From IMG/VR virus record IMGVR_UViG_2541047882_000006: a stretch of 33,679 nt of DNA. One strand, given 5' to 3'. The notes under the pieces were generated by a model that was not told the DNA's origin, made no database searches, and saw only the letters and a list, made by a program, of their open reading frames with translations. Source of the stretch: a virus (taxonomy: Duplodnaviria > Heunggongvirae > Uroviricota > Caudoviricetes). Positions 8,560 to 23,195 of this stretch are shown piece after piece; the stretch's first letter is position 1, and every line of letters begins with the position of its first letter. A program made the translations under genes and the position numbers.

Positions 8560-8880
8560 CTACACACACTGCTCCTGAAAATACTGGTCATCCAGTGCAA
8601 AGATCACTGCTTCAAACTCATCGCGCTCAATCAATACCGGATGAGTGGCTAAATATTCATTTATCTCTGTCAGAGATAAAGGCAAAGGCACCCCGGTCAT
8701 TCCAGCATAACGTCGGGCACGGGATATTACCGAATAGGCGTACAACAATTCCTTAAGCACCGGGTCTATTTCTGGTTCCGGTATCGGTGGCAACCTGAGT
8801 TTTTCTCGCTTCCATCTTGCCTTTTCCCCCCTTTCTCCCCCGAACTCCGATAACCACCGCTGGGCGGCTATGGCTTTTTT
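8560..8880 (-). CDS. tail assembly chaperone T segment, expressed as a G-T fusion by -1 programmed frameshift
   Basis: Track ORF 8560-8793 (TTG called as start). The same frame is open upstream through the G stop. A slippery heptamer A_AAA_AAG lies at 8874-8880 (minus strand), two codons before the G stop at 8868-8870. Confidence 0.65.
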   Translation of the reverse strand, partial: KKAIAAQRWLSEFGGERGEKARWKREKLRLPPIPEPEIDPVLKELLYAYSVISRARRYAGMTGVPLPLSLTEINEYLATHPVLIERDEFEAVIFALDDQYFQEQCV

Positions 8881-9317
8881 ATCGTATCCTGCTTCTGCTG
8901 CTCTTTACCCTGGGCGATGCTGGCTGCTTCTGCAAGGATCTGCCAGTACAACTCTGGATTCTGCTTAAGCAGCGCGATCCCTCGTTCTGGCGTATATTCC
9001 AGTGCAACCTCAGCACCATTAACCAGTTCACCAACCCCTTTCCAGTCTTTCAGCAGATAACGAGCAGCATTATCAATGAGTAAATCATCAACAGAATCTA
9101 CCTCGGAAACCTTTGAAATATCAAACTCCTTCGTTCCGACGTGCAAACTGGCATCCATTTTCTCAATGTGACGACGGATTAATGCATTACGGGAGCGATA
9201 CTGATCGTTATCGCTGCTTGCCACCAACAGTTTTAACCCGTCTACAGGTTTTAAGTCCTTCATTGGCGTAAACCAGCGTTCTCCACCGATGATAATTTTC
9301 TGATTAAGAATAAACAT
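8868..9317 (-). CDS. tail assembly chaperone G (lambda gpG-like)
   Basis: 149-aa track ORF directly upstream of the T frame and H in lambda order; ends with the slippery site; GAGG ribosome-binding site 7 nt upstream, inside the IS903 target duplication. Confidence 0.7.
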   Translation of the reverse strand: MFILNQKIIIGGERWFTPMKDLKPVDGLKLLVASSDNDQYRSRNALIRRHIEKMDASLHVGTKEFDISKVSEVDSVDDLLIDNAARYLLKDWKGVGELVNGAEVALEYTPERGIALLKQNPELYWQILAEAASIAQGKEQQKQDTIKKP

Positions 9318-9328: not shown

Positions 9329-10385
9329 GGCTTTGTTGAATAAATCAGATTTCGGGTAAGTCTCCCCCGTAGCGGGTTGTGTTTTCAGGCAATACGCACG
9401 CTTTCAGGCATACCTGCTTTCGTCATTTTGTTCAGCGCTCGTACCAGGGCCATAGCCTCCGCAACCTGACCATCGTAGTCACGCAGCGTCAGTGAACCCC
9501 CGAACAGCTGTTTTACCCGGTACATCGCCGTTTCCGCTATCGAGCGACGGTTGTAATCTGTTGTCCATTTCCACCGCGCATTACTCCCGGTCATTCGCTG
9601 ATTAGCCACTGCACTGTTACGGTCTGCATATTCACCGGGCCAGTAACCCGCACCTTTTCGGGGAGGGATAAGGGCGCTGATTTTCTTACGCCGCAGTTCA
9701 TCGTGACAGAGCCGGGTGTCGTAAGCGCCGTCTGCCGATGCTGCCCTGATTTTTCTGTGAGTCTGCCGGATAAGACCCGGGAAGGCTTCTGAGTCCGTCA
9801 CATTGTTCAGCGACAGGTCTGCACAGATGATTTCATGTGTTTTACTGTCAACGGCGAGATGCAGCTTACGCCAGATACGGCGGCGTTCCTGGCCATGCTT
9901 TTTGACTTTCCACTCGCCTTCACCGAAGACCTTCAGCCCGGTGGAATCAATTACCAGGTGTGCGATTTCACCCCGGGTGGGCGTTTTGAAACTGACATTA
10001 ACCGACTTTGCGCGCTTGCTGACACTGGTGTAATCCGGGCAGCGCAACGGAACATTCATCAGTGTAAAAATGGAATCAATAAAACCCTGTGCAGCCCGCA
10101 GGGTCAACCTGAACACGCGTTTAATGACCAGAACGGTGGTGATGGCGAGATCAGAATAGCGCTGAGGTCTTCCCCGTGATGAAGGCGTTGTCGACTCATA
10201 CCAGGCCTGAATGGCTTCATCATCCAGCCAGAAAGTTATGGAGCCACGGTTGATGAGGGCTTTATTGTAGGTGGGCCAGTTGGTGATTTTGAACTTTTGC
10301 TTTGCCACGGAACGGTCTGCGTTGTCGGGAAGATGCGTGATCTGATCCTTCAACTCAGCAAAAGTTCGATTTATTCAACAAAGCC
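9329..10385 (-). mobile_element. IS903 (IS5 family) insertion sequence, complete
   Basis: 1057 bp bounded by perfect 18-bp inverted repeats GGCTTTGTTGAATAAATC (9329-9346) and GATTTATTCAACAAAGCC (10368-10385); one transposase ORF; 9-bp direct target duplication; length and repeats match IS903 as I recall it. Confidence 0.85.
9385..10308 (-). CDS. IS903 transposase (DDE, IS5 family)
   Basis: Track ORF 9385-10353 (322 aa from a TTG). Starting at the in-frame GTG (VAKQKFKITNWPTYNK) gives 307 aa; C-terminus MTKAGMPESVRIA recognised as IS903 transposase. Confidence 0.8.
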   Translation of the reverse strand: MAKQKFKITNWPTYNKALINRGSITFWLDDEAIQAWYESTTPSSRGRPQRYSDLAITTVLVIKRVFRLTLRAAQGFIDSIFTLMNVPLRCPDYTSVSKRAKSVNVSFKTPTRGEIAHLVIDSTGLKVFGEGEWKVKKHGQERRRIWRKLHLAVDSKTHEIICADLSLNNVTDSEAFPGLIRQTHRKIRAASADGAYDTRLCHDELRRKKISALIPPRKGAGYWPGEYADRNSAVANQRMTGSNARWKWTTDYNRRSIAETAMYRVKQLFGGSLTLRDYDGQVAEAMALVRALNKMTKAGMPESVRIA

Positions 10386-10394: not shown

Positions 10395-10443
10395 TTCAAT
10401 GCGTCCCCCTGTAGTGCAGTACCACAGGGGGAATAACGGAAAA

Positions 10444-10872
10444 TCAACTAATCGCATCAGCACTGGCTTTTGCGATCACGGCAGTCGGGGAGCATTTTTT
10501 TCTGGTTGTCGGCTTTTTACCCTGAGCAACAAGCATCGCAAACTTAGCCTGCTGGTCAGAAATGCCGAATTCATCGGGACAGAACGAAAATTCCTCCGCG
10601 TCGCCCTCATTCAGGCCCGCATCGAATACTGGCTTTTTTTCCTGAGATTTTTCGTTCCGCTTTTGTGCAGTCTGCGCAGATTTTTTCTGCGCACTTTTTT
10701 GCGCAGTTTTGCACATTTCTGTCTGCGCATTTTTCGGAGTTTTTTTGATGTAACGACGGGCTGTTGCGTAATTCAGTCCCCTTGCTTCACACCATGCCAC
10801 CGGAGATATACCGGAGCGGGTGTATTCAGCAATATACTCCTGCTGCAACGCCCCCCAGTCCGGTCTGCTCAT
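10444..10872 (-). CDS. small-terminase-like DNA-binding protein (resembles Rac YdaY region)
   Basis: 142-aa track ORF; N-terminal helix-turn-helix-like segment (ISPVAWCEARGLNYATARRYIKK) followed by a basic, low-complexity tail. Assignment by sequence impression only. Confidence 0.45.
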   Translation of the reverse strand: MSRPDWGALQQEYIAEYTRSGISPVAWCEARGLNYATARRYIKKTPKNAQTEMCKTAQKSAQKKSAQTAQKRNEKSQEKKPVFDAGLNEGDAEEFSFCPDEFGISDQQAKFAMLVAQGKKPTTRKKCSPTAVIAKASADAIS

Positions 10873-10875
10873 CAG

Positions 10876-11127
10876 TTAGTCCTGATTTTTATCCACCCTG
10901 AGTAGTTCGCGCAGAGCAAAGGCATCCCCTTTTCTGGCAAGCTTAAACAATGCCGCTCGTAACTCGGCTTCACCTTTCGCTCTGCCCTTACGGATGGCCG
11001 CATAAAAATCTGTCATTGCTTCCCGATTTTCTTTCAGTCGGTTCAGATCAACATCCAGAACGTCAGCGATTTGTTGTGCAGTCATCCGGCACGCTGCCAG
11101 AGACTCGACTTTCGAATACGGAATCAT
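10876..11127 (-). CDS. small HTH protein (resembles Rac YnaK / terminase small subunit N-terminal fragment)
   Basis: 83-aa track ORF; TAQQIADVLDVDLNRLKENREAMTDFY resembles terminase small-subunit DNA-binding domains. Confidence 0.45.
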   Translation of the reverse strand: MIPYSKVESLAACRMTAQQIADVLDVDLNRLKENREAMTDFYAAIRKGRAKGEAELRAALFKLARKGDAFALRELLRVDKNQD

Positions 11128-11995
11128 TTGTCACCCCCATTGATATGCAGGGTGTCTTCTTCCTGTATTTTTCGTGAAGGATTTTTACTGCAGCGTTGTT
11201 CCAGGTGACCTGATGGTGAATGCGTTTATGGCTGGCACCCATCAGTGAGATTTTTACGCACGACGGCGCATACATGACGGAGTAAAAACTTTTAACGTAG
11301 GTTCCGGAATCCAGATACAGCTCGGTCATTCCGCCGCTGTTTTTCTGCGTCTGTTTCTGCCCTAACTGGACAGCACCGATCGTCATAAACAATTCACCAC
11401 AGCGACCGAGATTCGTGTACGTATTCACATCCTCGTTAATGCGCCCCATGAATGAGAACGGTCGATCAACCGAACAGATAAAGCTGTTCATTGCCTTGCG
11501 TTTCACCCACGAAGCATGGCCGCCATTGTCACCAAGAAAATCCCCGCCCTGCGACATAGCGATGGAAAGAGCAGGTATTGATTCGTAGTACGCCAGCATT
11601 TCAGAAAGGATCGCATCCAGTTTCCTTATCGGAAAATAGGCCTGGTCATAGTTGCGATCCACCCGAAACTGGAACTCGTGATAATCATCATCGAGCTGAA
11701 TGAAGTATTTACACCCGACCAGTTTTGCCAGGTCGAAACAGGCATTACGGGCGTAAAAAATTGAGCGGCGGTCACAGAAATTATCGGCTTCGTCAAAACG
11801 ACTGGCGATATCGGCTTTGGAAAACACCAGCACCTGTTCACCAAATTCAGCCATGTACTGATGCCGTGTCTTATCTTCATCATCAACAACGATAAAAATT
11901 TTCCCGGTATAGCCAGCACGACGCAACGTCCGGTAAGTCAGAACTTTGTCCGGTCGCCCGTGAGTCAGAATAAAGGCGCAAAAATCATCACGCAT
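11063..11995 (-). CDS. hypothetical 310-aa protein, possibly a nucleotide-sugar transferase-like (GT-A-like) fold
   Basis: Track ORF 11063-12016; start moved to the internal ATG (MRDDFCAF) preceded by GGAGG and overlapping the ParB-like stop (ATGCGTGA), suggesting translational coupling. Two acidic DxD-like motifs (FIVVDDEDK, IQLDDDYHEF). Fold assignment is speculative. Confidence 0.5.
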   Translation of the reverse strand: MRDDFCAFILTHGRPDKVLTYRTLRRAGYTGKIFIVVDDEDKTRHQYMAEFGEQVLVFSKADIASRFDEADNFCDRRSIFYARNACFDLAKLVGCKYFIQLDDDYHEFQFRVDRNYDQAYFPIRKLDAILSEMLAYYESIPALSIAMSQGGDFLGDNGGHASWVKRKAMNSFICSVDRPFSFMGRINEDVNTYTNLGRCGELFMTIGAVQLGQKQTQKNSGGMTELYLDSGTYVKSFYSVMYAPSCVKISLMGASHKRIHHQVTWNNAAVKILHEKYRKKTPCISMGVTNDSVFESRVSGSVPDDCTTNR

Positions 11996-12779
11996 ATTCC
12001 TCCTCCTCACCACCATGCATGATCTCCACCATGCGCTGCGTCATCCGGACAAATCCATTTTCAATAGCCTGCTGATAATCAATGATCACCAGCGCCGACT
12101 CCTCGAAAAAACACTGAATTTCAGCGGGGGCGTGAGCGTAATAGTCCGCAATTCTGCTGAAATTAAACACCGTGTGACGTTCTGCCGCACACAGGAGGAA
12201 TTTCTCAATATCAGGCTCAAGGGACGCCGAACGTATCCGGCTGATCAGCTCCTGAGTTTTCGTATCGTCGTACAGTTCACTGATATCCGGTTTACCGCCC
12301 GACGGCTCATAAACAGGCGTATCAATTTTCGTCGTATACGGCTCCTCCTCATTTCCTGTACCGGGCAAAACATCCGTCAACAGTTCATCAATTTCTGTCG
12401 GGATGAAGCCTGTCAGGGAGACATCAAAATCAGCATTGATTAGGTCCGACAGCTCCATCCGCAACAGATCTTCATCCCAGCCAGCATTCATCGGCAGGCG
12501 ATTATCTGCCAGGCGGTACGCCTGTTTCTGCTCATCCGTCAGGCCAGACAGAACAATGACCGGAACAGAATCCATTTTGAGCATTTCAGCCGCCATAACA
12601 CGACCGTGACCCGCAATAATTTCGCCCTTTTCGTCAATCAGCACCGGATTAGTCCAGCCGAATTGCTTAATACTTTCTACCAGTTGTGCCACCTGCTCAG
12701 TACTGTGCGTCCTGGCGTTGTGCGCATACGGTGACAATTCTTGTAATGGGCGATAGACTATCTTTAATTTCTCGCTCAT
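11988..12779 (-). CDS. ParB-like nuclease domain protein (ParB/sulfiredoxin N-terminal fold) with C-terminal extension of unknown function
   Basis: 263-aa track ORF; ParB N-terminal-domain hallmarks (PLQELSPYAHNARTHS, IIAGHGR, QAYRLADNRL); AAGG ribosome-binding site upstream of the ATG. Confidence 0.7.
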   Translation of the reverse strand: MSEKLKIVYRPLQELSPYAHNARTHSTEQVAQLVESIKQFGWTNPVLIDEKGEIIAGHGRVMAAEMLKMDSVPVIVLSGLTDEQKQAYRLADNRLPMNAGWDEDLLRMELSDLINADFDVSLTGFIPTEIDELLTDVLPGTGNEEEPYTTKIDTPVYEPSGGKPDISELYDDTKTQELISRIRSASLEPDIEKFLLCAAERHTVFNFSRIADYYAHAPAEIQCFFEESALVIIDYQQAIENGFVRMTQRMVEIMHGGEEEEYA

Positions 12780-12916
12780 ACAGCCTTGCTTTATGAATAA
12801 AACGCACCCCAGCAGCCAGTGCTACTGGGGACGGAGGTGTTGCTGGTAAAGTTAGGTATTGGATCAATGAGTGAGTCAACATAATATTAAACTCACAATT
12901 ATAAATCAGCCATATA

Positions 12917-14374
12917 TTAGGAGCGCCAAAAAAAACCTGAAAACAATATAATAACAGGATAAATTTCAAGGCGACCAAGAATCATAGCTATGCACATTAA
13001 ACATTTTGCAATGTCATTAAGCACTCCGAATGACGATGCAGTAGCCCCAAAACCTAATCCCATATTATTAATACATGCAGCCACTGTTGCAAATGATGTA
13101 AGAAAATCATATCCCATACCATTTAACACCAGTATAAAAAACACCGTGAAGAGAGTATAAAGAAAAAAGAAACTCCATACAGACCTCATTACACGATCTG
13201 TAACTATCTTCCCTCCTACATTTACACTCAACAACGCTCTGGGATGAGAAAGCTGATTTATCTCGTGTTTGCTTTGTTTGAAAAGTATAAGAAATCGAAG
13301 TGACTTAATTCCACCACAAGTTGAACCTATACATCCCCCAAAGAAACTTGACAACAGCAAAAACACTATCGTATGCGTGGGCCAACTTGCATAATCCTGC
13401 GTAGCTAAACCATTATCAGTGAGCATGGAGCTGGCAAGAAAAAACGAATGAATAAAACTTCCATGCAAGTCATACATACCTATATGCCAGACCTGGAAAG
13501 AGGTAACAATGATCACCCCTAAGGCTATTAACAGAAAGAAACGAAGTTCAATATCTCTGATTAAAGGTTTTATCGTTTTCCTGCTAATAACAATATACCA
13601 AAGAGTGAAGTTGAAAGCCGATAGCAGGGAAAAAGAACCAGCCACCAGCTCAACCAAATAGTTATTAAAATATCCGATACTCTCGCTATGAGTTGAGAAA
13701 CCACCAAGCGAAACTGTGGAAATCCCGTGACAAATAGCATCAAACAAAGGCATTCCTGCAAGTCTATAACAGACAATACAAGCAATACCTAATAAAGAAT
13801 AAGTTATCCACAGTGTCCGTGACGTATCGGCCAGGCGGGGAGTGAGTTTGTCATCCTTAAATGGCCCCGGCATTTCTGACTGATAAAGCTTTGCACCACC
13901 AATACCCAATAATGGCAATACAGCAACCGCCAGAACAATAACTCCTAAACCACCTATAAAATTTAACTGTGACCGATAGTACAAATATGCCCGAGGTAAT
14001 GAACTAACATCATCAATTACAGTTGCTCCTGTTGTTGTTATTCCAGAAACCCCTTCAAACAGAGCATCAATGAACGTTAAATTAAGTTCTGAGTCAATCC
14101 ATAAAGGGAATGCACTAATAACAGAAAACAAAATCCAAAACATTACAATTATAATAAACCCATCACGGGTACGTAATTGAATGCCAGATTTCTTAGTTGT
14201 ATACCACGCTCCGCCACCAATGCAAAAAAATATAACGAAAGTTATAAAGAAAACGAACAGGCTTTTTTCTTTATAAAACAATGCTACAACCATTGGTGGC
14301 AACATTGAAAGACTATAGAGCCAAACCAGGAACCCACACATATGAGTAACAACTCTTACATGAGATGTATTCAT
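12917..14374 (-). CDS. trkG: Trk-system potassium uptake protein TrkG (prophage-borne TrkH paralog)
   Basis: Track ORF 12917-14392; start placed at MNTSHVRVVTHMCGFLVW to match K-12 TrkG (485 aa as recalled); polytopic membrane protein; AT-rich. Confidence 0.9.
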   Translation of the reverse strand: MNTSHVRVVTHMCGFLVWLYSLSMLPPMVVALFYKEKSLFVFFITFVIFFCIGGGAWYTTKKSGIQLRTRDGFIIIVMFWILFSVISAFPLWIDSELNLTFIDALFEGVSGITTTGATVIDDVSSLPRAYLYYRSQLNFIGGLGVIVLAVAVLPLLGIGGAKLYQSEMPGPFKDDKLTPRLADTSRTLWITYSLLGIACIVCYRLAGMPLFDAICHGISTVSLGGFSTHSESIGYFNNYLVELVAGSFSLLSAFNFTLWYIVISRKTIKPLIRDIELRFFLLIALGVIIVTSFQVWHIGMYDLHGSFIHSFFLASSMLTDNGLATQDYASWPTHTIVFLLLSSFFGGCIGSTCGGIKSLRFLILFKQSKHEINQLSHPRALLSVNVGGKIVTDRVMRSVWSFFFLYTLFTVFFILVLNGMGYDFLTSFATVAACINNMGLGFGATASSFGVLNDIAKCLMCIAMILGRLEIYPVIILFSGFFWRS

Positions 14375-14511
14375 ATCTAAATATTCTTTCAATTATAACC
14401 ACCTTGCTGCAATATTATGATTATACTGTATAAAATTTAACTCCTCTTAGATCTTACTTCACTGTTCCTTATGAAACAATCATCAAAATGAATCATATTG
14501 TAGTTAAGATT

Positions 14512-15936: not shown

Positions 15937-16332
15937 CTAACCTCGCATGTCAAAGCCAGATTTCTGAAAATCTCTGTAGACTTCCGGATTGTTGAAGGCC
16001 GGAAATTTGGCTTTATGAGCTGCGGACTTTATCGCTTCGCAATAGGCTTTATCACCGTTACTGGTAGATATTTTTAACGCCGTGCCATCCTGAGAGAATT
16101 CCATATGCAACCTGCATTTTTTCCCTTTCCAGTTATGCGGCTCATCAAGTTTGGCATTAATTGCAGCTCTGATTCCCCGCGCTTGCGCCCCCCATTCATC
16201 CTGATCATCCCAGCGTCCTGAACTGCAACTACCTGTAGCAGTAGTTTTGTGGCAATCTGAAGGGTGTAAAGGTGTGCATCCCGCAACAAAACCGACCCAA
16301 AAAGTCAACATAACGATTTTCTTTAATCCCAC
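15937..16332 (-). CDS. lipoprotein with TolA domain III-like C-terminal domain (paralog 2, divergent)
   Basis: 131-aa track ORF; signal peptide and lipobox (FVAGC); C-terminal ~80 aa share the two-Cys pattern and the PEVY-x-F motif with the upstream paralog and with TolA domain III. Confidence 0.6.
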   Translation of the reverse strand: MGLKKIVMLTFWVGFVAGCTPLHPSDCHKTTATGSCSSGRWDDQDEWGAQARGIRAAINAKLDEPHNWKGKKCRLHMEFSQDGTALKISTSNGDKAYCEAIKSAAHKAKFPAFNNPEVYRDFQKSGFDMRG

Positions 16333-16482: not shown

Positions 16483-16911
16483 TCAGGGTTTAAAATCCAG
16501 CACCCCATTTTGAAATACTTTATATACTTCCGGCGAAGGGGGGGCAGGTATATCAGCATTCTTTATCGCATTCATCGCTTCACGACATAAATCGAGGTCT
16601 CCACTTTCTCTTTTAACCTCCAGTAGAAGGCCATTCGGGGCCATATGCATTCTCAGTGTACACTCTTTTCCTGAATACTTACTCGCATCCCCGAACTGTT
16701 TTTCGATGGCGCTCTTGATTTGATGGGCATACAGACGGATATCCTCACTAACATCAGAAGTACGTTCAGATGAACTCACATACTGTGTCTCTATTGCTTT
16801 ATCGGAGTAATATGATGTACGGTCATGATAATTTGTCGATACAGCATCAGTGCACCCGATAATAATCCCACTAATAATCAACGTAAGAATTGATGCGCTA
16901 CGAAAACCCAT
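16483..16911 (-). CDS. lipoprotein with TolA domain III-like C-terminal domain (paralog 1)
   Basis: 142-aa track ORF; lipobox IIIGC; C-terminus YAHQIKSAIEKQFGDASKYSGKECTLRMHMAPNGLLLEVKRESGDLDLCREAMNAIKNADIPAPPSPEVYKVFQNGVLDFKP aligns closely with the E. coli TolA C-terminus (...YAGQIKSAIESKFYDASSYAGKTCTLRIKLAPDGMLLDIKPEGGDPALCQAALAAAKLAKIPKPPSQAVYEVFKNAPLDFKP) as I recall it. Confidence 0.7.
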   Translation of the reverse strand: MGFRSASILTLIISGIIIGCTDAVSTNYHDRTSYYSDKAIETQYVSSSERTSDVSEDIRLYAHQIKSAIEKQFGDASKYSGKECTLRMHMAPNGLLLEVKRESGDLDLCREAMNAIKNADIPAPPSPEVYKVFQNGVLDFKP

Positions 16912-19801: not shown

Positions 19802-22066
19802 TTATACGGAAACTGGCACACGAGCAGGCAATGGATAGTGAGCCCAGTTATTAGCATTTAAAGCTCTTACACCATCAGCATAAACTTGTGTGTTTCCATC
19901 TAATGATTTTAAAGTTACTACAATAGTTACAGGTAAAGGCTCCATTAAGGCCGGTTCATTCGCTCTCAACGTTGTTTTAGCCTGAAGAGCCCAGTTACCC
20001 GAAGTAATTCCTTTATTAAATGCCTTGCGATGAATTTTTACTGGTGACCACTTTCCACCATGCTCAATTTGAGCTCTCTCATATCCAGATTGACCGTTTT
20101 CTCCTTCCATAGGCACTTTTCCTTTTATAGTATTATTCTCAATTAAGCCAAAACTTAGCTCTACGTTCGCGCGAACATATTCACTGCCGGCATTAGGGTT
20201 TAGTGGTGGTGCATATGCAGCAGTAATTACAATCTCACCTTTAAATTTTCCATTTTGAATAAGTGCCGATGGTATGGGATAGTTTTCCTTTCTCCACCTC
20301 ACCCCAGGAACCAAGAATGTTTGGAAAATCAGAGTAAACCTATCATCACTATCATATAAGGTCTCAATAACCTCATTAGGAATTCCCGCTCCCAAATAGC
20401 GTCTTTCACTTGGCGAGTAATCAGGAGAAGATAATTGAGCGGAATGAATTAATAATGCTTTAATCAATGATGGTGAAACATTAAAGTCTGAATTAGTGGC
20501 TATTCTCTGCCATGTATGCGCAGCTAAACTTGCCACAATTGGAGCAGCAAAACTAGTACCAAAATTAGAGCAAAGCCTATTATCTGGCCCTACGACCTTT
20601 AAACTGCTTGCTCCTACATTCCAAGGTCTATGAACCCCACCGCCAGCATGGATTATATCTGGCTTTGGAGTAAATACAGGCCCAGGGCCACGACGAGTAT
20701 ATGGTGTCGGTGTTCCAATTTCACTTAAAGCATCATTAGCTTCCATATGAGAAACTGAACCAACTGTTAGTGCTCGGACTGACTCTCCAGGAGAGGAAAT
20801 TAAATCAGCACCTCCAAGCGGATCAGGATTTGGCCATGTACGTATAGGTTCATCTACATAATTACCTGCAGCAACTACAAACAAAATACCAAATTTATCG
20901 CTGAGCCGATCTAACTCCATCGCAAAATCACTAAACATCTGCTCATTACATGGTCCGCCTCCCAAAGACAAATTCCAGACTTTTATATCTGGTCTTTTAT
21001 TTACAGCATCTGCTAGCCTCAGAATTAAATCTGATATATAAGATCCATTTTCATCTAAAGCACAAACATCATGGATTTTAGATTTTGTATCAGGAATCCA
21101 TGGATGATTGTCATTTAAAAAATGAGCGCCTGATATCAATGAAGACACCATAGTCCCATGTTCATAACTCGTATCAGGAGGAATTACGTATGTTTCCCTA
21201 CTCACTACCCAAGGAGTAATTGTTGCCGCGATGGGGCTTACCCCAGTGTCAAATACAGCAACAATGGGTAATTCTTCTGATGGTACGGGAAAGCTATTTG
21301 TTTCAATGCCAACAGAATCACTTACACTAACCGGGAATGCTGAATATTTTGGTTCTGGAATTAACGTTCTTATACCCGGGTAATCAATGAGAATGTCTAA
21401 TATATATCTATCACTTGGGGATAAATCCATTATCCTTAATAAGGGAAGACCACATTTTTGTCTAATTTCATCATATTTAACTCCGTATTGTTCTAATATA
21501 GAAATAACGTTTTCATAGTTGTTGTAAGTTGCATCTTCACCTGTGTACTCAAATAGTCGTACAAGGATGTTTGATGATTCAAACAAACCATCAGTGCCTC
21601 CCGGAACCTTCCTATTCTCATCCCAAGGTTCAATGCGCTCAATCGCGCTTAGATTAGCCAAAATCGCTTTAATATTCCGATTTAAAATGACTGACTCTAA
21701 TACGTCAAAACAGCCGGCATGAGCAGCAACCAACATTTCATCTATTTTGGCATGACCGGCATTTTGCAATCCAGCCTCTTGAGCAATTTTGTTCGGCCTA
21801 TGCGTTTTGGCTATTCCCTGGTCTCTTAATTTGAAAACCAAAGTACCCAAGCTTCCAGGGTACTCTGAAAGTTTGGATTCTAAATAATGTTTACTGGTTG
21901 TTAAATTTCTTACTAGCCCTTGTCTATATTCGGCTGTTACATCAACCAATACCTTTGCCCCACCGCCAGCGTTTACTATTGCACCCAAGTCACTACTGGA
22001 AAAAGGGATTCTTAACGTTGGGTTTGTAACTTTTGCGTTACTAAACTGTGTACCCCTTCTGCTCAT
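19802..22066 (-). CDS. subtilisin-like serine protease (peptidase S8) with large N- and C-terminal extensions; IetS-like
   Basis: 754-aa track ORF; S8 motifs in order D (VAVFDTGVS, ~aa 273), H (YEHGTMVSS, ~303), N (VVAAGNY, ~402), S (GTSFAAPIVASLAAH, ~505); no N-terminal signal peptide; AGGAG ribosome-binding site; start overlaps the upstream ATPase gene by 26 nt. Confidence 0.8.
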   Translation of the reverse strand: MSRRGTQFSNAKVTNPTLRIPFSSSDLGAIVNAGGGAKVLVDVTAEYRQGLVRNLTTSKHYLESKLSEYPGSLGTLVFKLRDQGIAKTHRPNKIAQEAGLQNAGHAKIDEMLVAAHAGCFDVLESVILNRNIKAILANLSAIERIEPWDENRKVPGGTDGLFESSNILVRLFEYTGEDATYNNYENVISILEQYGVKYDEIRQKCGLPLLRIMDLSPSDRYILDILIDYPGIRTLIPEPKYSAFPVSVSDSVGIETNSFPVPSEELPIVAVFDTGVSPIAATITPWVVSRETYVIPPDTSYEHGTMVSSLISGAHFLNDNHPWIPDTKSKIHDVCALDENGSYISDLILRLADAVNKRPDIKVWNLSLGGGPCNEQMFSDFAMELDRLSDKFGILFVVAAGNYVDEPIRTWPNPDPLGGADLISSPGESVRALTVGSVSHMEANDALSEIGTPTPYTRRGPGPVFTPKPDIIHAGGGVHRPWNVGASSLKVVGPDNRLCSNFGTSFAAPIVASLAAHTWQRIATNSDFNVSPSLIKALLIHSAQLSSPDYSPSERRYLGAGIPNEVIETLYDSDDRFTLIFQTFLVPGVRWRKENYPIPSALIQNGKFKGEIVITAAYAPPLNPNAGSEYVRANVELSFGLIENNTIKGKVPMEGENGQSGYERAQIEHGGKWSPVKIHRKAFNKGITSGNWALQAKTTLRANEPALMEPLPVTIVVTLKSLDGNTQVYADGVRALNANNWAHYPLPARVPVSV

Positions 22067-23195
22067 ATGCTCCTGACTCCTTCAGAATGTTTGAAATTAC
22101 TCTTGATGTAAGTTTGTACAAATTAGCAAGAACTCTGATAGAAAATAATTTTTTATCTTTAGAACGTAACCAACGAATTTCATCTTCGTAAGTGCTTAAA
22201 TTTACACCTTCCATAAGCGATTGAGCAAGATACAAACGCCTATACAATTTGTGGTGATTTATCACACTTGCACCTTCAATAACTGCATCCCTACGTGCAT
22301 CCAAGCTCACCTGTTCAATTATTGCTCCGGATAATCCTTCCGATTTTCTTGATAAATCACTTAAATCTAGATCGCTACATATCATATTCTTTAAACGATT
22401 TTTCCAAATTAACTCTCTCTGATGTATGTCAGGCAGAGGCATTGGAATTCTGAAGCTAAATCGCCTCCAGATTGCAGGATCCAGAAGTTGCTCATGGTTA
22501 GTTGAGGCAATAATTACCGTATCCTCTGATGCCGCATCCATATTCTGCAATAGTGAAATGACAACTCGCTGAAGCTCACCTATATCTCTCTCATTACCTC
22601 TTGCTCCAGCTAAAGCATCAAATTCGTCTAAAAAAAGCACTGATGGCCTCTGCATTACATAATCGAAAACCTGTCTAAGATTTTTGCTGGTTTGTCCCAA
22701 TAAACTACTAATCAAAGTATCGCAACGCACTGTAAGAAGTGGAAAATCTAAGCGGGTAGCGATGTACTTAGATAACATAGTCTTACCTGTTCCTGGCTTT
22801 CCATACACGAGCATACGACTCGGCAATGCTGCATCAGCTTTAACAAACTCATCATAACGTTGAACATTAGTGATAAACTCTTCAACACGGGTACTGATTG
22901 CTGCAGGCAGAAAAATCTCTGAACTGTCTAATTTAGGATAACTGACATCAACAGTGTTGAGTCGACTATCAATATCTACCGGTAATGAGCCCAGAGATAT
23001 CCCACCTCCAGCCCTTTGAGCTCCTGCCAACGCCTGGGGAGCTCTAAGCAACCTTTCTCTTATCATTCTGGCTTGCTTGACCTCCCCTTTTTGTTCGAGC
23101 TTATCTGCCAGCAACCCAGCATAATTACTAGCCATCGAAGCATTTGCCTTTGTTGCACCTTCAATGATTTTTAACACTTCTGATAAATAATCCAT
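22041..23195 (-). CDS. AAA+ ATPase; IetA-like
   Basis: 384-aa track ORF; Walker A GKPGTGKT (~aa 132-139), Walker B VLFLDEFD (~185-192), sensor-1 IIASTNH, arginine pair WRRF; ~125-aa N-terminal and ~130-aa C-terminal non-ATPase regions. Confidence 0.8.
   Translation of the reverse strand: MDYLSEVLKIIEGATKANASMASNYAGLLADKLEQKGEVKQARMIRERLLRAPQALAGAQRAGGGISLGSLPVDIDSRLNTVDVSYPKLDSSEIFLPAAISTRVEEFITNVQRYDEFVKADAALPSRMLVYGKPGTGKTMLSKYIATRLDFPLLTVRCDTLISSLLGQTSKNLRQVFDYVMQRPSVLFLDEFDALAGARGNERDIGELQRVVISLLQNMDAASEDTVIIASTNHEQLLDPAIWRRFSFRIPMPLPDIHQRELIWKNRLKNMICSDLDLSDLSRKSEGLSGAIIEQVSLDARRDAVIEGASVINHHKLYRRLYLAQSLMEGVNLSTYEDEIRWLRSKDKKLFSIRVLANLYKLTSRVISNILKESGAYEQKGYTV

Follow-up and report, generated by a model that had tools for sequence, protein, structure and literature searches.

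The 33,679-nucleotide virus record IMGVR_UViG_2541047882_000006, called the window below and meant at its full length, is a Rac-type prophage of Escherichia coli in which two overlapping minus-strand genes encode a 263-residue ParB-like protein (hereafter the partner) and a 310-residue glycosyltransferase (Table 1). An initial annotation of this DNA had proposed both open reading frames (ORFs), their coordinates and their principal motifs, all of which stand: the partner carries HNARTHS at residues 20–26 and AGHGR at residues 56–60, and the transferase possesses the acidic motifs VVDDEDK (residues 36–42) and QLDDDY, the latter containing D102–D104. The translational coupling proposed there is also apparent at the junction. 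The plus strand reads tcacgcat at 11988–11995, which is ATGCGTGA on the minus strand, so that the stop codon of the partner and the start codon of the transferase overlap, and direct reading of the sequence places the ribosome-binding run GAGGAGGAGG 4–13 nt 5′ of the transferase ATG. The length of 310 residues is counted from this ATG; the 317 residues given in the ORF list arise from an in-frame ATG further upstream. The last ~25 residues are unconserved, with relatives being ~285 residues long, and this tail overlaps the next ORF. Judged by their sequence matches, both ORFs are genes rather than chance reading frames, because they match Pfam and PHROG families and the region is present across E. 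coli genomes. At least 80% of positions 10400–13000 is found in 859 of 5426 complete E. coli genomes, in which RefSeq names the products ynaK (ParB/Srx family) and ‘GREB1-related protein’ or ‘hypothetical protein’.

The fold of the 310-residue protein, for which the initial annotation had guessed a nucleotide-sugar transferase-like architecture, is that of a GT-A glycosyltransferase of the TAGT family. Residues 8–222 score 122.3 bits (E = 3.4e-35) on Pfam PF20691 (TET-associated glycosyltransferase, TAGT), for which the cut-off is 27.5, and cover positions 4–205 of the 205-position profile; the full length matches PHROG 842, ‘beta-glucosyl-HMC-alpha-glucosyltransferase’ (E = 6e-104). The D102–D104 triplet is invariant in all alignments made. 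In alignments A1 and A6, R14, D41, D71, R83, N187, D189, T216, Q217, R258, H260 and H261 are invariant as well, and E188 is invariant in A6 and nearly so in A1; the transferase residues correspond to the R...DDD...ED set described for phage GT-A DNA glycosyltransferases (bioRxiv 10.1101/2023.12.21.572611). An AlphaFold2 (AF2) model, which like that of the partner rests on a shallow alignment restricted to hits with at least 55% identity, reached a mean predicted local distance difference test score (pLDDT) of 66.8, mostly above 85 in the N-terminal half and below 50 in much of the C-terminal half. Querying the Protein Data Bank (PDB) with this model using Foldseek returned 33 matches at E ≤ 0.001, nearly all of them GT-A glycosyltransferases and including LARGE1, GalS1, SpsA, TarS, glycogenin and AvpGT, which are generic GT-A matches with TM-scores of 0.3–0.4; a sequence search of the PDB with the transferase detected no solved structure. 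On the favoured reading the protein uses a nucleotide-sugar donor, probably a uridine diphosphate (UDP)-hexose.

The ParB/Srx-fold identity of the 263-residue protein, likewise anticipated, is confirmed by profile and fold matches alike: ParB_N (PF02195) matches residues 23–90 (E = 8e-7, 29.5 bits against a cut-off of 26.3), PHROG 620, ‘ParB-like partition protein’, matches at E = 5e-90, and the N-domain, modeled with pLDDT values of ~80–90, retrieves CTP/CDP-bound (cytidine tri- or diphosphate-bound) ParB, Noc, KorB and PadC in Foldseek, and more weakly sulfiredoxin and the free serine kinase SerK, with E values down to 2e-6. Two methyltransferase models pick up this part of the partner: PADLOC MTase_II, through its N-terminus, covers residues 10–144 (4e-38), and PHROG 498, ‘DNA methyltransferase’, covers residues 3–141 (2.7e-50). 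By homology, the N-domain is of the kind found joined to DNA methyltransferases in fusion proteins of other phages. Of 86 non-redundant orthologues, at least 90% have each of N21, S36, G57 and N93, and at least 70% have each of R23, R60 and D92. The G57-H-G-R60 and D92-N93 segments lie at the positions of the phosphate-binding ParB motifs Box II GERR and Box III EN, as assigned by eye against the published motifs, and the CTP-hydrolysis glutamate of canonical ParB is replaced in the partner by His58, a position that is not conserved. A function in ParABS partition was rejected, since Pfam detects neither a helix-turn-helix DNA-binding domain nor a ParB dimerisation family in the partner, no ParA-like gene occurs among the neighbours examined, and the partition-protein model TIGR00180 scores 38 bits, under its cut-off of 58. 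The database label ‘partition protein’ is misleading for this protein.

The most strongly conserved parts of the partner lie outside the ParB fold, in the linker motif and the C-terminal domain (CTD). Among 107 non-redundant partners, Y148, P155 and Y157 of the linker are kept in 98–99% and K174 in 91%, and in the CTD R201, A211, Y214, D234 and A238 are kept in 100%, G242 in 99%, E226 in 98%, Q222 in 97% and H202 in 93%. The linker motif falls in a stretch of the model with pLDDT below 50 and is also kept in stand-alone CTD-only proteins. No Pfam family describes the CTD, the sole match being sub-threshold. A phmmer search with residues 138–263 against 1.84 billion representative proteins retrieved 1188 clusters at 50% identity; in all 150 hits listed the match is C-terminal, and the proteins that contain it mostly have 250–310 residues, or 128–200 residues where the CTD stands alone. 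Read from the AF2 model and from conservation, the layout of the partner is therefore an N-domain, a linker and a CTD, with no DNA-binding domain, adjoining a putative client enzyme.

To one side of this, a RefSeq genome identical to the window at this locus (L001, 21482–22273, minus strand) contains the complete 263-residue ORF, yet PGAP calls its ynaK a pseudogene of 258 nt, ‘missing C-terminus’. We suspect that the truncated K-12 YnaK model has propagated into annotation, as in this genome.

Pairing of the two genes is the rule across the loci collected. By tblastn, the transferase is found in 36 of 50,697 phage records, from phages of Escherichia, Salmonella, Lactobacillus, Nocardia, Vibrio and Porphyromonas, an uncultured gut phage and the haloarchaeal virus HHTV-2, and the window transferase shares 38–48% identity with its orthologues from Lactobacillus, Nocardia and haloarchaeal viruses. 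Three IMG/VR scans added ~225 loci. ORFs were called in the loci and searched with profiles built from both proteins. The partner was called directly upstream of the TAGT gene in 212 of 233 loci, which answers the co-occurrence check that the initial annotation had named; the 21 exceptions comprise TAGT genes at contig edges, over-extended ORF calls, an inserted gene, a nearby CTD-only protein and one fusion ORF. Across the 233 loci, which form 109 clusters at 80% identity, every TAGT gene with upstream DNA available is adjoined by this ParB or its CTD. Of the 105 clusters with upstream DNA, 96 show the overlap: the partner stop falls between −14 and +5 nt of TAGT profile position 1, except in one of these loci, where it is at −53. 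In one contig (L106, 9287–10855) partner and transferase form a single 522-residue ORF. This may be a natural fusion, but a frameshift or an assembly error where the genes normally overlap could give the same result, and the case is not counted as evidence.

Gene order downstream of the pair is similarly recurrent in kind and variable in family. Lactobacillus phage phi jlb1 has ParB, transferase (with an 11-nt overlap), small terminase subunit (TerS) and large terminase subunit (TerL), and L. delbrueckii phage c5 has a cos site, ParB, transferase, two small ORFs and TerL. In Nocardia phage NTR1 TerL follows the transferase with no recognisable TerS between them, as in some contigs; a Porphyromonas phage whose transferase is 27.5% identical reads ParB, transferase, TerS, TerL and portal; and in HHTV-2 TerL lies ~3 kb downstream of the pair. 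Pfam-annotated metagenome contigs give the same picture of gene order. A recognised terminase or portal gene occurs within five genes downstream in 72 of the 89 loci with a full-length ParB, and these neighbours include small terminase subunits, at least three unrelated TerL families and several portal and TerS families, so that the terminase and portal types vary and the partner is the sole invariable companion of the transferase. The initial annotation had set a conserved place in the terminase region, joined to an established morphogenetic role, against its own proposal; the place near the terminase is conserved, and an established morphogenetic role for the pair did not emerge. In 45 loci with the cluster-1 TerL, mean pairwise identity is 51% for the transferase, 40% for the partner and 20% for the large terminase subunit. 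The difference between 51% and 20% identity indicates, at the sequence level, that the transferase is under strong constraint, that the module has spread horizontally among unrelated phages, or both.

Variants of the module depart from this arrangement in instructive ways. Large lytic phages, Vibrio phage pv27 among them, have a partner of 130–150 residues that consists of the linker motif and CTD; it adjoins one to five TAGT paralogues in a neighbourhood that encodes DNA polymerase A, sliding clamp, DnaB helicase, primase, RecA and RecU. Tandem double transferases occur at some terminase-proximal loci (L097, L121 and L132). A radical S-adenosylmethionine (SAM) gene of ~320 codons lies directly after the transferase gene or between the pair in eight loci (for example L126, 10870–11829; L178, 936–1904; L130, 10872–11834); its product could be assigned to no subfamily, its best hits being weak and far under the cut-off (MoaA, tungsten-cofactor maturase, viperin); the L130 transferase also has an extra 185-residue N-terminal region with no Pfam match. 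A minority of loci carry a UDP-glucose 4-epimerase (GalE) above the curated cut-off, and sugar-phosphate nucleotidyltransferases. Judged by sequence family, these accessory genes point to UDP-hexose donors, and they are of the types found in known DNA-glycan clusters (bioRxiv 10.1101/2023.12.21.572611). Three metagenomic phage contigs (L153, 7794–13218; L157, 8731–10849; L154, 1531–6140) have a stand-alone CTD beside two to five TAGT paralogues among replication genes, together with cytidylyl/adenylyltransferase-like, CofD/YvcK-like plus HAD and GlmU-like genes. This combination suggests multi-sugar modifications.

Table 1 Features of the gene pair and of its surroundings in the window
Feature	Position	Strand	Description
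ParB-like partner gene	11988..12779	(-)	263 aa; full-length form of K-12 ynaK
Glycosyltransferase gene	11063..11995	(-)	310 aa; TAGT family, GT-A fold
Coupling junction	11988..12008	(-)	ParB stop TGA 11988-11990 within ATGCGTGA; transferase ATG 11993-11995; GAGGAGGAGG run 11999-12008
DDD motif (D102-D104)	11684..11692	(-)	reads GATGATGAT; GT-A metal and nucleotide-sugar binding motif
ParB N-domain, residues 1 to ~135	12375..12779	(-)	ParB-CTPase/Srx fold plus helical segment
Linker motif, residues ~146-174	12258..12344	(-)	Y148-T-x-K-x-x-x-P155-x-Y157-E-P...K174
C-terminal domain, residues ~175-250	12030..12257	(-)	helical
trkG	12917..14392	(-)	low GC; between lysis cassette and ParB gene
Terminator-like hairpin, trkG/ParB gap	12807..12830	(-)	10-bp stem, 7 GC pairs, T-rich tail
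83-aa ORF	10876..11127	(-)	downstream packaging-gene context; intact order in L007
Small terminase remnant, 142-aa N-terminal	10444..10872	(-)	PHROG 309 and 51 ‘terminase small subunit’; packaging-remnant region
IS5 transposase gene	9385..10353		cuts small terminase subunit

The Rac prophage of E. coli K-12 clarifies how the pair came to lie beside trkG. The 87-residue K-12 YnaK is 100% identical to residues 1–86 of the partner, and K-12 YdaY corresponds to residues 34–149, the 3′ part, of an ORF in the tail region (window 8868–9317). By this comparison, the K-12 deletion runs from inside the ParB gene to the tail gene, because YnaK is the start of the ParB gene and YdaY the 3′ part of the tail gene, and the rest of the ParB gene, the transferase, the terminase and the head genes are lost. 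Reading K-12 ydaY as a remnant of the transferase was considered and rejected on the same ground. An induced and more complete relative, vB_EcoS-683R6, has the order holin, lysozyme, spanin, trkG, ParB, transferase, 69-residue ORF, TerS, TerL and portal. The G+C (GC) fraction of trkG is 0.34–0.42 vs 0.47–0.50 for the pair and the neighbouring phage genes. The initial annotation had taken the pair for extra cargo next to trkG; the converse holds, trkG being inserted cargo (a moron) and the pair an original part of the late operon, because trkG has low GC and its own strong terminator-like hairpin and because the K-12 comparison and the order in the intact phage agree. Late, Q-dependent expression of the pair is suggested by its position after the lysis genes and behind the trkG terminator, and we infer that it is reached by late transcription reading through past the hairpin.

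In the window itself the prophage is defective, since IS5 truncates the gene for the small terminase subunit, and no large terminase subunit, portal or head gene is present in the window; tail genes follow directly. The pair is intact, and the module is probably a silent passenger here. Other E. coli strains have different deletions at the terminase-region site (for example L001).

Taken as a whole, these features lead us to regard as moderately probable a late-expressed, two-gene DNA-glycosylation module that depends on its ParB-like partner and sits in the Rac-type late operon just upstream of the packaging genes. The linker motif and CTD of the partner would dock on, or activate, the transferase, while its ParB N-domain would bind nucleotide and hold the enzyme on duplex DNA; the transferase would then glycosylate phage DNA late in infection from a nucleotide-sugar. 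Replicated phage DNA would be sugar-coated just before packaging and protected from host nucleases in the next cell, and the silent prophage would leave the host chromosome unmodified. Several lines of evidence argue for DNA as the acceptor: i) the packaging and structural proteins beside the pair vary and the hosts have unrelated envelopes, which favours a universal acceptor such as DNA; ii) DNA is the substrate of those microbial family members that have been characterised, namely the T2/T6 beta-glucosyl-HMC-alpha-glucosyltransferase, the founding phage TAGT (PMC13390438; PMC13216743), and the JGT-like phage GT-A enzymes, which act on 5-hydroxymethylcytosine (5hmC; bioRxiv 10.1101/2023.12.21.572611); iii) the N-domain of the partner is the type fused to DNA methyltransferases; and iv) in lytic phages the module lies within clusters of replisome genes. 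A DNA-directed role is further suggested by ParB-like proteins that activate cognate phage dioxygenases on double-stranded DNA (PMC13229309), and ParB was proposed earlier, in a statement quoted in PMC8256090, to direct modification enzymes to sites during packaging. The initial annotation had suggested a two-component module directed at DNA, which fits the family, the genomic context and the near-universal co-occurrence; its action on DNA is still something that we infer.

Several observations weigh against this model, and the most serious concerns the acceptor. The TAGT family, reportedly defined by Iyer et al. in 2013, is named after the TET/JBP oxygenases that accompany it and that generate the hydroxymethyl group used as acceptor. 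Neither a TET/JBP oxygenase nor a thymidylate-synthase-like hydroxymethylase was found by Pfam scans of the window, and neither appears in the record of the intact Rac-like phage as far as this is annotated, among the families hit by at least two of the 138 neighbour-cluster representatives within four genes (for the 25 of 77 families listed), or within 10 kb in three Pfam-annotated contigs (L236–L238). The oxygenase search comprised Pfam scans of the window ORFs, the recurring neighbours and the contigs, not whole-genome scans with a TET/JBP profile; for the large lytic phages with CTD-only partners, the search for a thymidylate-synthase-like hydroxymethylase covered the immediate neighbourhood only. 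In the loci examined, therefore, no TET/JBP or other source of 5-hydroxymethyl-pyrimidine lies near the pair. Canonical DNA has no hydroxymethyl group, and we know of no glycosyltransferase that acts on canonical DNA. The remaining points concern the two proteins. A mirror-tree comparison of their distance matrices gave a weak correlation (r = 0.31), which none of 500 permutations reached; the distances are nearly saturated, and we place little weight on it. The C-terminal half of the TAGT model and the CTD of the partner are low-confidence models because the alignments are shallow. Our literature search found no experimental data on any member of the pair, and GREB1, a member of the TAGT family, is reported to O-GlcNAcylate a protein (PMC7968844).

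One way to accommodate the missing oxygenase is that the pair glycosylates canonical-base DNA, or some universal feature of DNA, with no prior oxidation or hydroxymethylation, the linker motif and CTD of the partner supplying an acceptor-activating or base-presenting function; we regard this as rather unlikely. If true, it would constitute a new DNA-modification chemistry in temperate phages of many bacterial phyla and of haloarchaea. That orphan enzymes of this kind are numerous is already on record, as ~65% of phage glycosyltransferase contigs, with no neighbouring 5mYOX or thymidylate synthase, were set aside in the largest survey published, and ParB-like proteins and terminases were among the neighbours (bioRxiv 10.1101/2023.12.21.572611).

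Other acceptors and other functions were weighed against the model of ParB-dependent DNA glycosylation. The transferase could act on protein, adding sugar to a tyrosine or threonine of the partner's own linker in the manner of glycogenin priming, or to another protein, with the ParB fold serving as a nucleotide-gated switch. Such a reaction needs no hydroxymethyl base, has a precedent in the reported activity of GREB1 (PMC7968844), and would make sense of two near-invariant tyrosines in a stretch of the partner predicted to be disordered, as expected of an acceptor or docking peptide; the two to five tandem TAGT paralogues could build a chain, and glycogenin is among the structural matches. 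These matches are generic to GT-A, however, with the low TM-scores given above, and the linker motif is equally well explained as a docking site for the enzyme; a glycosylated ParB has no apparent function, the N-domain is shared with DNA methyltransferase fusions, and the lytic-phage versions lie among replisome genes, so that we judge a protein acceptor unlikely. Marginally less probable still, in our estimate, is an accessory role in packaging, in which the ParB-like protein would help the terminase to recognise or process the packaging site or DNA ends and the transferase would mark that site or those ends rather than the whole genome. The conserved position directly upstream of TerS and TerL (72 of 89 full-length-ParB loci) is what such a role would predict, as are the pair's place as the first two genes past the cos site in phage c5 and the direct succession of TerL, with no recognisable TerS, in Nocardia NTR1 and some contigs; HNH proteins play a role of this kind in some cos phages, and the suggestion quoted in PMC8256090, that ParB guides modification enzymes to sites during packaging, can be read the same way. 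Against this, the downstream terminase families are mutually unrelated, so that no specific protein partnership is conserved, and the CTD-only versions sit among replication genes, away from terminases. We also know of no packaging function for any TAGT.

A benefit to the host from the prophage, either as anti-phage defence that glycosylates or binds incoming DNA or as a lysogenic-conversion enzyme for a cell-surface polymer, appears most improbable. It would be in keeping with the retention of an intact pair by defective Rac derivatives with different deletions (the window and L001), with the further defence genes of this prophage (IetAS and SieB) and with prophage GT-A enzymes such as TarP, which, as cited in bioRxiv 10.1101/2023.12.21.572611, modify wall teichoic acid. 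Retention in E. coli can nonetheless be explained by hitch-hiking beside trkG, and the pair lies in a late operon behind a terminator; the level of identity kept by the transferase across viruses of Gram-negative, Gram-positive, actinobacterial and haloarchaeal hosts (38–48%) excludes an envelope-specific acceptor. PADLOC returned no match for the transferase. A known defence system was likewise rejected, because PADLOC matches only the N-terminal ParB part of the partner, through the methyltransferase model.

Comparison with characterised systems places the model of ParB-dependent DNA glycosylation among several partial precedents. The T2/T6 beta-glucosyl-HMC-alpha-glucosyltransferase resembles the window transferase in family (PF20691, PHROG 842) and GT-A fold, and transfers glucose from UDP-glucose onto phage DNA (PMC13390438; PMC13216743). 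Unlike the pair, the T-even enzyme adds a second glucose to glucosyl-5hmC, in a pathway with hydroxymethylation at the deoxynucleotide triphosphate (dNTP) level, and lacks a ParB partner; the relationship is so remote that tblastn at 1e-5 does not detect it, and the prophage in the window has no hydroxymethylcytosine (hmC) pathway. The C5-methyltransferase/5mYOX/GT-A clusters from metaviromes share with the pair a post-replicative GT-A enzyme, the R...DDD...ED residues and a frequent location near ParB and terminase genes (PMC8256090; bioRxiv 10.1101/2023.12.21.572611), and there the glycan is lengthened by successive glycosyltransferases and by epimerases (Burke et al. 2021, PMC8256090; bioRxiv 10.1101/2023.12.21.572611). 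These clusters differ in encoding their own 5hmC-making methyltransferase and oxygenase, neither of which occurs in the prophage or among the recurring neighbours here. Base J glucosyltransferase (JGT), which glucosylates 5-hydroxymethyluracil (5hmU) in DNA, is the enzyme reported as structurally closest to the phage GT-A DNA glycosyltransferases (bioRxiv 10.1101/2023.12.21.572611); the trypanosomatid JGT, in contrast to the pair, depends on JBP oxygenases and has no ParB partner. Vertebrate GREB1, after which RefSeq calls the E. coli protein ‘GREB1-related protein’, is a large protein reported to modify protein (PMC7968844) and again has no ParB partner.

The partner has its own precedents. 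ParB-dependent thymine dioxygenases (O'Toole et al. 2026, PMC13229309) share its layout of a nucleotide-binding domain, a disordered linker and a CTD with no DNA-binding domain, and there the ParB protein is required by the adjoining enzyme on double-stranded DNA and partners are cognate-specific (PMC13229309). The client in that system is a dioxygenase, linked to kinases and amino-acid transferases, whereas the client here is a glycosyltransferase; we do not class the pair with the ParB-dependent 5mYOX type, and the two may work similarly, the likeness being one of layout. The first ~140 residues of the partner have homologues in the fusions of ParB-N to DNA methyltransferases (PHROG 498; PADLOC MTase_II PDLC03229), for which prophages are enriched (PMC12704722). 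The modifying domain of those fusions is covalently attached, whereas the pair encodes it as a second protein, coupled in translation, with a dedicated CTD as its presumed docking site.

Both protein families, the association of ParB with phage DNA-modification clusters and the ParB-dependent activation of a DNA-modifying enzyme are already published. Our literature search found no description or test of the pair itself, its coupling, the linker motif and CTD of the partner, the CTD-only variants or the independence from TET; Iyer et al. 2013 may mention the association. The pair constitutes a large, sharply defined subset of the orphan GT-A enzymes, always with one specific partner domain, and phage GT-A enzymes are known to decorate 5-hydroxymethyl-pyrimidines, a modification that defeats both restriction enzymes and CRISPR nucleases. 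Should the pair act on DNA, the acceptor of the orphan enzymes would be revealed, ParB activation would extend from oxygenases to glycosyltransferases, and DNA-marking tools might follow; if it modifies protein, the TAGT family would gain a new role in phages. E. coli offers a tractable route, as K-12 is naturally free of the module (ynaK truncated, transferase deleted) and about one in six complete E. coli genomes has it. The annotation is corrected in either event: ynaK is a remnant rather than an independent gene, and the partner is misnamed as a ‘partition protein’.

Elsewhere in the window, two further sets of genes were observed. In the early region, an AAA-ATPase gene (22041–23195, minus strand, 384 residues) overlaps an S8 subtilase gene (19802–22066, minus strand, 754 residues), and PADLOC identifies the ATPase as IetA (9e-143) and the subtilase as IetS (2e-300), the IetAS pair being a known anti-phage and anti-plasmid defence carried as prophage cargo. 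Between the Q antiterminator region and the holin gene, two minus-strand ORFs of 131 residues (15937–16332) and 142 residues (16483–16911) each encode a TolA C-terminal domain (Pfam, 1e-14 and 2e-23) with no PADLOC match; these TolA-domain proteins may be decoys against the Tol-dependent entry of colicins or filamentous phages.

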